64,000 nucleotides of DNA, from assembly GCA_021209525.1 (NCBI GenBank), contig JAJOIF010000001.1, forward strand, positions 10,708-74,707, written 5' to 3'. Made by a program: the position numbers and the translations under genes. The notes below the pieces were generated by a model. The model was not told the origin of the DNA. It made no database searches and worked only from the letters and a program-made list of their open reading frames with translations. Below, one piece after another: positions 28,790-29,070 of this stretch. Each line of letters starts with the position of its first letter. The stretch's first letter is position 1. Origin of the DNA: Minisyncoccota bacterium. GTDB lineage: Bacteria; Patescibacteriota; Minisyncoccia; Phycocordibacterales; UBA1006.

Positions 28790-29070
28790 TACGCTACGGC
28801 GAGCAAAGCAAGATACAACCCCGTCAAACGGGGCAGGCAAATTCCAAATTTCAAGAAACAAATAATCACTCATTCCCGGAATTTGTGAGCATGCGAACAA
28901 ATGTCAGGGATCTCGGCCCGCCTGACTCCGTTTAACAGGGCTGACGGGGGGCTACACTTCGAAAATTCAGGGCAAGAGGTGGTGATGCCAAAAACCGGTC
29001 CTGCTGGTTTTTATGTTTTGGGATTTGTTTGTAATTTGTTATTTGGTGCTTGGAATTTATTCACACATAC
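28790..29070 (+). repeat. MITE-like structured intergenic repeat, copy A (~220-280 bp)
   Basis: Shares blocks with 60282-60692: TTCAAGAAACAAATAAnnACTCATTCCCGGAATTTGTGAG, GCGAACAAATGTCnGGGATCTCG, CGAAAATTC, and the hairpin AAAAACCGGnnnnnCCGGTTTTT followed by GTGCTTGGAATTTAnT. The terminal inverted repeats are AAATTCCAAG ... CTTGGAATTT. Confidence 0.7.

Follow-up and report, generated by a model that had tools for sequence, protein, structure and literature searches.

The 64,000-nt chromosomal stretch analysed here (the window) comes from an uncultured candidate-phyla bacterium, and its intergenic regions carry a family of non-coding, hairpin-rich repeats, of which three copies, A, B and C, are described below in window coordinates. 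As a sequence family it is new, and it belongs to a kind of bacterial repeat that is already familiar. The genes of the window include tmRNA beside smpB, five tRNAs, recG, prfB, ftsEX and a type IV pilus cluster. Three metagenome-assembled genomes (MAGs) at NCBI (GCA_021208345.1, GCA_021208725.1 and GCA_021209085.1), as well as the Logan assemblies of SRR12390696 and SRR12390697, encode proteins identical to window proteins; NCBI labels such proteins ‘Candidatus Pacebacteria bacterium’ (Paceibacteria, candidate phyla radiation). The nearest sampled relative is known from the Logan assemblies SRR324568xx (protein identity to the window 73% for SLT and 69% for prfB), and its loci L009 and L014 hold further family members. 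More distant relatives (L012, L017 and L018) are 59-63% identical in the SLT or prfB protein used for fetching. In total, about 82 kb of the window species (the window with 10 kb to its left and 8 kb to its right) and about 40 kb of the relative were covered for family members.

Copies A and B and the genes beside them

Self-comparison of the window by BLAST gave A and B as its strongest non-palindromic match (28845-28889 against 60313-60357, 95.6% over 45 nt, E 7e-14). The homologous extents are 28838-29068 for copy A and 60272-60704 for copy B, and the blocks within them are colinear: 43 of 45 positions are identical in the first stretch and 23 of 24 in the second, followed by about 100 nt at 70% (69.6% over 102 nt for the 3' parts, from an AAGAGG block through the terminator to the right arm). 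The initial annotation had counted about 150 nt of near-identical blocks; their near-identity and common order are borne out, but the near-identical part comes to about 70 nt, the rest being about 70% identical or confined to short blocks. The window contains block 1, ACTCATTCCCGGAATTTGTGAG (28868 and 60336), and block 2, TGCGAACAAATGTC[A/C]GGGATCTCG (28892 and 60379), exactly twice each, against 0.00 expected from shuffles. The features of copy A and of the sequence to its left are as follows.

28706-28818, plus strand: upstream modules, with two CTTCGCTnCGCTRCGG units (28711-28726 and 28784-28799), ATAAAGTAC (28764) and AAGGTAC (28773), the latter two common to B, and the 3' end GAGCAAAGCAAGATACAA
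28819-28833, no strand assigned: mini-palindrome CCCCGT-CAA-ACGGGG (the CCCCGTCAAACGGGG hairpin), left of the A/B-homologous body
28838-28867, plus strand: left arm of decayed heptads with AAATTCC (28839) and AAATTTC (28846), lag-7 self-match 0.58
28868-28915, plus strand: conserved core, with block 1 at 28868-28889 (GGAATTT at 28878) and block 2 at 28892-28915 (AAATGTC at 28899)
28903-28926, plus strand: hairpin GTCAGG-N12-CCTGAC, counterpart of the long stem of copy B
28927-28981, plus strand: short common blocks TCCGTTTAACA (28927), CGAAAATTC (28960) and AAGAGGTG (28974)
28946-28951: G6 run within the short-block stretch
28990-29012, plus strand: intrinsic terminator of 10 pairs, one of them G.T, followed by a T-run
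29013-29068, plus strand: right arm, GT-rich and complementary to the left arm, with CTTGGAATTT at 29049 and the flank CACACAT at 29062

Copy B follows the same order with an added insert.

60272-60335, plus strand: left arm, with AAATTCCAAG at 60282, AAATTTC at 60314 and a 32-nt internal duplication
60336-60402, plus strand: conserved core, with block 1 (60336-60357), mini-palindrome CCTCGT-CTA-ACGAGG (60362-60376) and block 2 (60379-60402)
60386-60547, plus strand: long stem AAATGTCCGGG / CCCGGACATTT of 11 bp, enclosing a hairpin-rich insert of 134 nt (60403-60536)
60417-60424: C(TTCG)G loop within the insert, which also holds the hairpin GCATAAGT-GGT-ACTTATGC
60515-60531: imperfect mini-palindrome GGCCCGTCAAACGAGCC, likewise within the insert
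60550-60623, plus strand: short common blocks TCCGTTAGCA (60550), CGAAAATTCC (60563) and AAGAGGCG (60616)
60577-60609: hairpin between the short blocks, with the inverted mini-palindrome GGAACGT-TTG-ACGTTCC (60585-60601)
60632-60654, plus strand: intrinsic terminator AAAAACCGG-N5-CCGGTTTTT of 10 perfect pairs, followed by a T-run
60655-60704, plus strand: right arm, with CTTGGAATTT at 60682 and the flank CACACAT at 60698

The GTCAGG-N12-CCTGAC hairpin and the G6 run had been recognised correctly in copy A; the CCCCGTCAAACGGGG hairpin is also present, but outside the part shared with B. Upstream of A, positions 28770-28815 are 89% identical over 46 nt to L014:20029-20074 of the relative. Blocks 1 and 2 are mutually complementary in copy A, while in copy B they form a 13-bp helix (TCCCGGAATTTGT with ACAAAT-G-TCCGGGA) with the mini-palindrome in its loop. 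Block 2 of copy B has an alternative partner in the downstream CCCGGACATTT, the two pairing as an 11-bp stem across the 134-nt insert, and one pair of this stem is compensated between the copies (GTCAGG/CCTGAC in A against GTCCGGG/CCCGGAC in B, A-T against C-G). The word AAATTCC (variants AAATTTC, AAATGTC and AAAATTC) and its complement GGAATTT (variant GGACATTT) run in identical order through both copies, at 28839, 28846, 28878, 28899, 28962 and 29052 in A and at 60282, 60314, 60346, 60386, 60540, 60566 and 60685 in B, with orientation alternating six to seven times; seven of the 23 GGAATTT sites of the window fall in A and B, which occupy 1% of it. With these words alternating, the body can be read as hairpin units in series, and it appears to comprise three of them, the last one enclosing the terminator.

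The terminator-like hairpin reported near the 3' end is exact in B and carries one G.T pair in A. Both central hairpins have the make-up of an intrinsic terminator (a GC-containing stem-loop, then a T-run), and terminating activity is predicted for them. They belong to the generic type of this genome, ACAAAAACCG...CGGTTTTTGTG, found in A, in B, after other genes (about 5003-5035, 6814-6842 and 20669-20695) and after the tmRNA. The neighbouring proteins of the two copies are a methyltransferase, a DUF3605 protein, a beta-helix protein and an SLT hydrolase. As originally described, each copy lies upstream of a plus-strand gene, copy A ending 41 nt before the methyltransferase gene and copy B about 110 nt before the SLT gene; the beta-helix gene upstream of B ends in a stop codon (TAA, 60273-60275) on which the left arm starts.

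Such a position, upstream of and co-oriented with a gene, would suit a cis-regulatory leader, a riboswitch or attenuator that uses the terminator to regulate the methyltransferase and SLT transglycosylase genes, and both terminators are preceded by sequences able to pair alternatively. A leader is nevertheless very improbable. Promoter-like elements lie between terminator and start codon at both copies, namely TACACA-16-TATGAT for the methyltransferase gene and an extended -10 (TGATATAAT), about 75 nt past the right arm, for the gene downstream of B. The two genes are functionally unrelated, the SLT upstream regions of L008 and L012 have no such element (synteny differs there), and other family members lie at gene ends. 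A riboswitch or leader was rejected because of the promoters downstream of the terminators and the element-free orthologues. The proposal of a shared terminator-promoter cassette holds for the terminator, which is real and of the generic type, but not for the promoters, which lie outside the common sequence.

Further members and the common plan

The window self-comparison also pointed to the prfB-ftsE spacer, where the third copy and a partial unit were found.

55908-56034, plus strand: copy C, a minimal ‘chassis’ member in the prfB-ftsE spacer, directly after the prfB stop codon
56058-56140, minus strand: inverted partial unit beside copy C, with TTGTATCTTG (56064), mini-palindrome ATCACGT-CTG-ACGTGAT (56083-56099) and ATCTTGCTTTGC (56111)

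Copy C consists of an AC-rich heptad left arm (CAAGAAACAAGGCACAAACAAATCCCAAAACACAAATAACAAATTT), a short decayed central hairpin with T-run and a GT-rich right arm. The minus strand of the partial unit repeats the order GCAAAGCAAGAT-hairpin-CAAGATACAA seen left of copy A; GCAAAGCAAGAT, from the upstream modules of A, reappears inverted at 56111. Three members lie in the relative: L014:10892-11027, in the prfB-ftsE spacer directly after the stop codon; L014:20020-20310 (chassis part 20140-20284), after a cation-ATPase gene; and L009:1-300, upstream of yqeY. Copy C is 74% identical to the orthologous spacer (L014:10889-11004, 117 nt, E 1.7e-16) and equally 74% to L014:20138-20264 (127 nt, E 1.7e-16), and the two L014 chassis copies are 78.5% identical to each other. 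The alignment of these three copies spans them from end to end. Among chassis copies BLAST gave E-values of 1e-16 to 3e-27 and nhmmer 7e-34 or better. The initial annotation had named, as the case that would speak against a repeat family, just two copies forming an ordinary segmental duplication without terminal inverted repeats or target-site duplications; with copy C, the two L014 members and the one in L009, A and B are no isolated pair. A genuine non-coding, hairpin-rich family with inverted arms and an internal terminator is upheld, with further members both in the window and in the relative. Next to copy C, the ftsE promoter region (56205-56310) is 88% identical to L014:11017-11114, whereas the prfB proteins are only 69% identical; it reads AAACCTTGCCATT.ATTAATAATTATTTTCTAATCTATCCACA ... 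AAGGTATAATG and includes the DnaA-box-like CTATCCACA.

All members share one plan, in which a left arm of decayed 7-nt tandem repeats is followed by a central hairpin with T-run and by a right arm that is the reverse complement of the left. In the left arms the heptad drifts from AAGATAC to CAAnnAA and AAATTCC. A 7-nt periodicity is present in ten of ten arms (lag-7 self-match 0.50-0.69, mean 0.58; 0.50 at lag 14; 0.29-0.38 at other lags). For the best-preserved copy TRF reports (ATATAAG)5.4 in the left arm and (CTTGTAT)6.4 in the right one. The centre of L014:20140-20284 (20192-20227), a 14-bp stem with flanking A and T tracts, looks like a textbook bidirectional intrinsic terminator. Judged against this plan, A and B appear to be expanded versions that have diverged from each other.

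The plan also accounts for the 10-bp terminal inverted repeats first assigned to A and B. The inverted words do exist, AAATTCCAAG (60282) matching CTTGGAATTT (60682) at 10 of 10 positions in B and AAATTCCAAA (28839) matching CTTGGAATTT (29049) at 9 of 10 in A, the left word common to both being written AAATTCCAA[G/A]. They appear to be internal, however: homology between the copies continues leftward to ATAAAGTAC..AAGGTAC (28764 and 60272) and rightward to CACACAT (29062 and 60698), and therefore the words are not demonstrably element ends. AAATTCCAAG is more plausibly a drifted pair of heptads than a terminus.

Were these repeats recombinase sites, the segment between them could be an invertible DNA switch (inverton), with inversion removing or presenting the terminator. 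Inverted repeats do enclose 210-410 bp immediately upstream of genes, the terminator is present in one orientation only, and Logan contigs break inside B. All the same, an inverton is the most improbable of the readings considered: a single orientation is found in four to five assemblies, the contig breaks fall at 60625 and 60629 and not at the repeats (60282 and 60682), neither strand has a promoter within the segment, and the arms belong to the wider heptad-arm family. The only nearby recombinase trace is a 159-aa serine-recombinase Zn-ribbon fragment (31783-32262), 2.7 kb away.

A second recurrent part is a perfect mini-palindrome of 15-17 bp with the centre CGT-NNN-ACG, found in both orientations and only in intergenic members. 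There are three in B, one just left of A and one right of C; perfect palindromes of this form number four in the window against 0.18 expected, all within A, B or C, with four more in the relative and none in the distant relatives. Their lower stems vary yet pair perfectly (CCC/GGG, CCT/AGG, GGAA/TTCC, ATCA/TGAT and GTCC/GGAC). In A and in L009 (L009:15-31) a mini-palindrome breaks the arm at the same point, with GATACAA before it and CAAAT after it; the chassis copies are uninterrupted there. Similar hairpins (CCCCATTTAACGGGG and CCTCGTTTGGCGAGG) stand in the tRNA-Ile/recG spacer at 24630-24675, preceded by TGCCGCACA, a word also present inside copy B at 60488.

Members tend to follow genes: four of the six (B, C and both L014 copies) directly follow a co-oriented gene, C and its orthologue starting 1-5 nt past the prfB stop codon and the second L014 copy 12 nt past the ATPase stop codon. 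With three members in the sequence of each species, the overall density is about one per 25 kb; no additional copy was found in the 10 kb to the left and 8 kb to the right of the window. The loci L012, L017 and L018 yielded no member by BLAST, nhmmer or palindrome search. The prfB-ftsE site, filled in the window and in L014, is element-free in L017 and L018, which are too diverged for boundaries to be read, and in L018 it is occupied by an ordinary GC-rich terminator. The A/B core had no copy in about 60 kb of the nearest relative. An exact-word scan of block 1 against 185,579 species-representative genomes returned only two chance matches of 21-22 nt (an Acidoferrum MAG and an Enterobacteriaceae MAG), one of block 2 against JGI metagenomes a single chance match in a high-GC contig, and four scans of IMG/VR viral contigs nothing, or a chance match within phage coding sequence; with blastn, neither B against phage records nor A against plasmid records gave a match. 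The family thus seems confined to a narrow clade. Within the species, A and B are unchanged between assemblies except for one 1-nt indel.

In short-read assemblies, contig ends fall inside or beside members (L006, L007, L009 and L010). L006 and L007 begin at window positions 60625 and 60629, just 5' of the copy B terminator, and two contigs of the relative begin inside the element upstream of yqeY. The same-species contig behind L019 stops about 300 nt before the expected position of yqeY, which hints at an unassembled orthologous copy in the window species.

Mosaic repeats, mobile elements or small RNAs

The pair A and B had been labelled miniature inverted-repeat transposable elements (MITEs), a label that is not supported: target-site duplications are missing, the inverted words appear to be internal to the heptad arms, and module order and orientation vary between copies. 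A search for the duplications at A (flanks GCAGGC/ATTCAC) and B (AGTACC/AATATC) found no direct repeat of 2-10 bp. More broadly, the family could consist of true non-autonomous DNA transposons (MITE- or foldback-like), with the heptad arms as transposase-binding ends and the copies as old, decayed and nested insertions. The complementary arms that each copy has, the scatter of copies over intergenic sites of two genomes, a varying internal ‘cargo’ and the absence of the family from more distant relatives would all agree with this, as would the short or differently occupied prfB-ftsE spacer in L017 and L018 and the assembly breaks noted above. In addition, L014:10897-11019 can be read as TA|AGATAC...GTATCT|TA, but TA sides occur only in that one copy of the relative and that TA belongs to the heptad. 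Besides the missing duplications and the homology beyond the inverted words, several observations argue against transposition. Apart from the two core blocks the copies are 70-79% identical and not near-identical, and no structural variation was found among the three MAGs and several Logan assemblies of the same species. In the prfB-ftsE spacer both genomes carry a member at the same position, their prfB proteins being only 69% identical, and this orthologous pair is only as similar as cross-genome paralogues, which fits a conserved consensus over neutral decay. No transposase with matching ends was found in about 150 kb, the only candidate being an IS3 remnant that ends in TGTCTGAA..GGGGTACC. 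A transposon origin is accordingly rated unlikely, and no evidence of a jumping element was found in the sequences compared.

The IS3-family remnant lies at 18610-19765 on the minus strand and comprises an rve fragment (18927-19334), an HTH_Tnp_1 ORF (about 19414-19686) and the inverted ends GGTACCCCAAAATTCAGACA / TGTCTGAAGAAAGGGGTACC. As a parent insertion sequence it was rejected, its ends being unrelated to the repeat family.

Folding bears on a different alternative, in which the A/B body represents paralogous structured small RNA genes, each spanning the left arm through the terminator and measuring about 175-250 nt in copy A and about 375 nt in copy B, with blocks 1-3 as a conserved junction, variable peripheral hairpins and AAAUUCC/GGAAUUU words that allow alternative pairings. 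Of the initial suggestion of a small structured RNA, this is the part that survives, for the A/B-specific core only. Copy B folds far better than shuffles (z = -6.6 on the plus strand), but about equally well on both strands (z about -6); copy A gives -70 kcal/mol on the plus strand against -49 on the minus, though only with the right arm included, and up to its terminator it folds no better than shuffles (z about 0). The left and right arms of A pair with each other in the minimum-free-energy fold, and RNAduplex joins them by 21 pairs. For the chassis copies the minus strand gives the slightly better fold, and RNAalifold on three of them gives one long hairpin of 44 pairs, three of them compensated. 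The C(UUCG)G loop in B (60417-60424) and the G.U pair in the copy A terminator, formed on the plus strand only, hint at RNA; the mini-palindromes, perfect and devoid of G.U pairs, hint instead at the DNA level.

A small-RNA identity is further favoured by the 5' domain of about 70 nt, 95-96% conserved against about 70% elsewhere, by a terminator of its own in copy A, where no upstream gene reads in, by a compensated stem that tolerates a 134-nt insert, and by weak -10-like sequences just left of the common ATAAAGTAC (TATAAA at 28762-28767 and TAAGAT at 60267-60272). No promoter passes the scan, however, and the complementary right arm extends beyond the terminator. Across the whole window Rfam at gathering thresholds recognised tmRNA and tRNAs only, and with E relaxed to 10 it gave sub-threshold noise for the A and B regions (best sroD, 20 bits against a threshold of 50, on the terminator). 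Together with the lack of strand preference in B, the z near 0 in A and the lack of core copies elsewhere, this leaves paralogous small RNA genes improbable. Slimmer still are the chances that the A/B-only body is a new class of structured regulatory RNA in candidate-phyla bacteria, expressed from a weak promoter of its own or processed from a 3' UTR. Such an RNA would comprise the left arm, blocks 1-2, the insert-tolerant compensated stem, blocks 3-5 and the terminator; the AAAUUCC/GGAAUUU words would switch helices, and the chassis copies would be its decayed or minimal relatives. If the core were indeed an expressed RNA, it would be among very few lineage-specific regulatory RNAs known in these organisms.

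The reading preferred here, at somewhat less than even confidence, is that A and B are mosaic palindromic repeats resembling BIME and BOX elements and acting as terminator and insulator structures at gene boundaries. With similar reserve, the family as a whole may be described as clade-restricted mosaic palindromic intergenic repeats of a Paceibacteria genome, A and B being diverged members. This class is preferred to a MITE because of the terminator-centred inverted arms, the placement at gene ends, the orthologous copy, the modular rearrangement and the alternating complementary words. Once transcribed, the elements would act as RNA structures that terminate and insulate between neighbouring genes, and the folded element would give the upstream transcript an exonuclease-resistant 3' end, as REP/BIME do in Escherichia coli. 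The family would diversify via heptad slippage, local duplication and mini-palindrome insertion, not via cut-and-paste transposition.

Several observations weigh against gene-boundary repeats. Blocks 1 and 2 are 95-96% identical while the remainder of A and B is about 70% identical or unalignable, which suggests that more is under constraint than the capacity to form some hairpin. Modules are found in both orientations (the inverted unit at 56058-56140), copies are few (about three in some 82 kb of the window species), and the central hairpin is decayed in C and its orthologue, where the 5' half has degenerated and a weaker pairing with G.U pairs is left. Arm-duplex energies have no consistent strand bias and the G.U-pair strand test differs between copies, and so neither lends support to selection at the RNA level. 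Finally, no co-oriented gene precedes copy A, and with a divergent left neighbour there is no obvious transcript for its terminator to act on, barring a promoter within the upstream modules. This last point and the conservation of blocks 1-2 are the reasons for keeping the small-RNA and mobile-element readings in play.

The proposed class has well-known representatives. The REP/BIME of enterobacteria and the REPIN doublets of Pseudomonas are extragenic palindromic units with a GTAG head, linked to RAYT (a Y1 transposase) and present in hundreds of copies. The present family resembles them in its extragenic location, its alternating short palindromes joined by specific linkers into mosaics, its lineage-specific sequence, its siting at gene ends or between co-transcribed genes and its predicted ability to act as terminator and 3' exonuclease barrier. 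The mosaic arrangement itself is found here as well, in the alternating colinear words of A and B, the complementarity of adjacent units and the palindromes in both orientations. It differs in sharing no sequence similarity, in having arms of 7-nt tandem repeats around a central canonical A-tract/T-tract terminator, and in occurring about once per 25 kb against hundreds of times per genome. GTAG beside the palindromes is not conserved in the copies examined, and no Y1 transposase or RAYT is present among the scanned window proteins or the precomputed Pfam labels of the fetched loci. Owing to the absence of both and to the low density, the resemblance is functional and architectural, not one of membership.

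BOX of Streptococcus pneumoniae (boxA-boxB(n)-boxC) and ERIC/IRU are modular intergenic repeats transcribed with neighbouring genes. Shared with them are the modular, intergenic build, end modules whose complementarity allows a long stem, internal modules in varying number and recognition without need for a target-site duplication; module sequences are unrelated, BOX/ERIC have no terminator as a constant part and they lack a counterpart of the CGT-NNN-ACG mini-palindromes. Correia elements of Neisseria, RUP and bcr1 are MITEs: their ends are sharp, a TA or another target is duplicated, near-identical copies are numerous and a cognate transposase family exists. Correia and other bacterial MITEs can also end transcripts or alter them, and can be cleaved as long RNA hairpins. 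The likeness here extends to size (100-450 bp), inverted ends and intergenic position, whereas the sharp ends, target duplication, near-identical copies and transposase family were not found.

For the arms, the closest analogue is the contiguous heptamer repeats of cyanobacteria; the STRR heptamers are comparable. Filamentous cyanobacteria carry such intergenic heptamers, for example TTTTGAA/TTCAAAA in Nostoc PCC 7120 (bioRxiv 10.1101/2022.06.06.494920). Both are tandem 7-nt units, intergenic and in both orientations near gene starts and ends, and the cyanobacterial ones are proposed to form secondary structure and affect expression; here the units are largely decayed, always form an inverted array pair around a hairpin with T-run, differ in sequence and belong to an unrelated organism. 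TIGR arrays, associated with Tas, occur in candidate phyla radiation bacteria including Parcubacteria, and their unit consists of two alternating 8-12-nt repeats with 9-nt spacers, recurring regularly every 36 nt, 5-15 times, beside a Nop-domain Tas gene (PMC12045711). Short alternating repeats, a rho-independent terminator at the end and occurrence in Parcubacteria make them comparable, but word spacing here is irregular (7 to >150 nt) and the neighbours are a methyltransferase, an SLT hydrolase, prfB and ftsE. TRF found no array over 60200-60750. A TIGR array was rejected on the irregular spacing, the TRF result and the lack of a Tas gene among the neighbouring methyltransferase, DUF3605, beta-helix and SLT hydrolase proteins.

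In the literature, no report of an interspersed palindromic repeat family in Patescibacteria was found; the genomes of these candidate phyla are small and generally thought repeat-poor, which would make such a family a rarity. The family offers a case of repeat evolution from simple parts (a terminator, inverted 7-nt tandem arrays and inserting small perfect palindromes). In practical terms, it marks gene boundaries, coincides with short-read assembly breaks and misleads gene callers.

Gene models and other features of the region

Copy A illustrates the last effect. The ORF start at 28901 had been flagged as an artefact, and the equivalent frame in B, ATGTCCGGGATCTCGTGGCGACCGCCATAG, indeed stops after nine codons. 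The NCBI model P0121 (269 aa, window 28985-29794) starts at 28985, at an ATG after AAGAGGTG inside copy A, and its reading frame takes in both terminator and right arm. Methyltransferase homologues measure 225-235 aa and cover 99-100% of a 230-aa product starting at 29102; both the 28901 and the 28985 starts are artefacts of the repeat. Three reading frames were rejected as genes: the small ORF MSGIS..., which is not conserved and in B ends after nine codons; the ORF from the AAGAGGTG-ATG through the copy A terminator, whose start codon is missing in B; and an ORF in the upstream CTTCGCT module, whose frame, open in L014, has no start codon in A.

Other identities were likewise set aside. A type I toxin-antitoxin locus would require a conserved small hydrophobic ORF with ribosome-binding site, which is absent. 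DnaA boxes or an origin were considered, TTATTCACA at 29057 fitting TTATNCACA, but such boxes show no enrichment (six against 3.7 expected) and the GC skew has no turn at this place. For 6S RNA, Y RNA, retron ncRNA, IS605/IS110 guide RNAs and, again, TIGR arrays, the defining neighbours or the regular structure are absent.

To the right of the copy A methyltransferase lie an ART-PolyVal/DUF3987 protein (30621-31592, minus strand) and then the 159-aa fragment, which contains only the zinc ribbon of a large serine recombinase; the genes at 30621-32262 look like the remains of an integrated element. The stretch 8000-18000 is low in GC (0.31-0.35, compared with about 0.42 elsewhere) and contains large ORFs at 9133-16853; it probably represents a type I restriction-modification island, and in the same-species contig L020 the gene adjoining it is labelled HsdM/N6_Mtase. 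Near-perfect palindromes of 40 and 34 nt (8847-8886 and 36554-36587), beside tRNA-Arg and tRNA-Ser, are ordinary strong terminator hairpins outside the repeat family. A further local repeat, about 6 kb left of the window start (L019:16185-16590), consists of three to four copies of TGTCGGTTAAATAAT...GGTATGAATACA in a 400-nt spacer.

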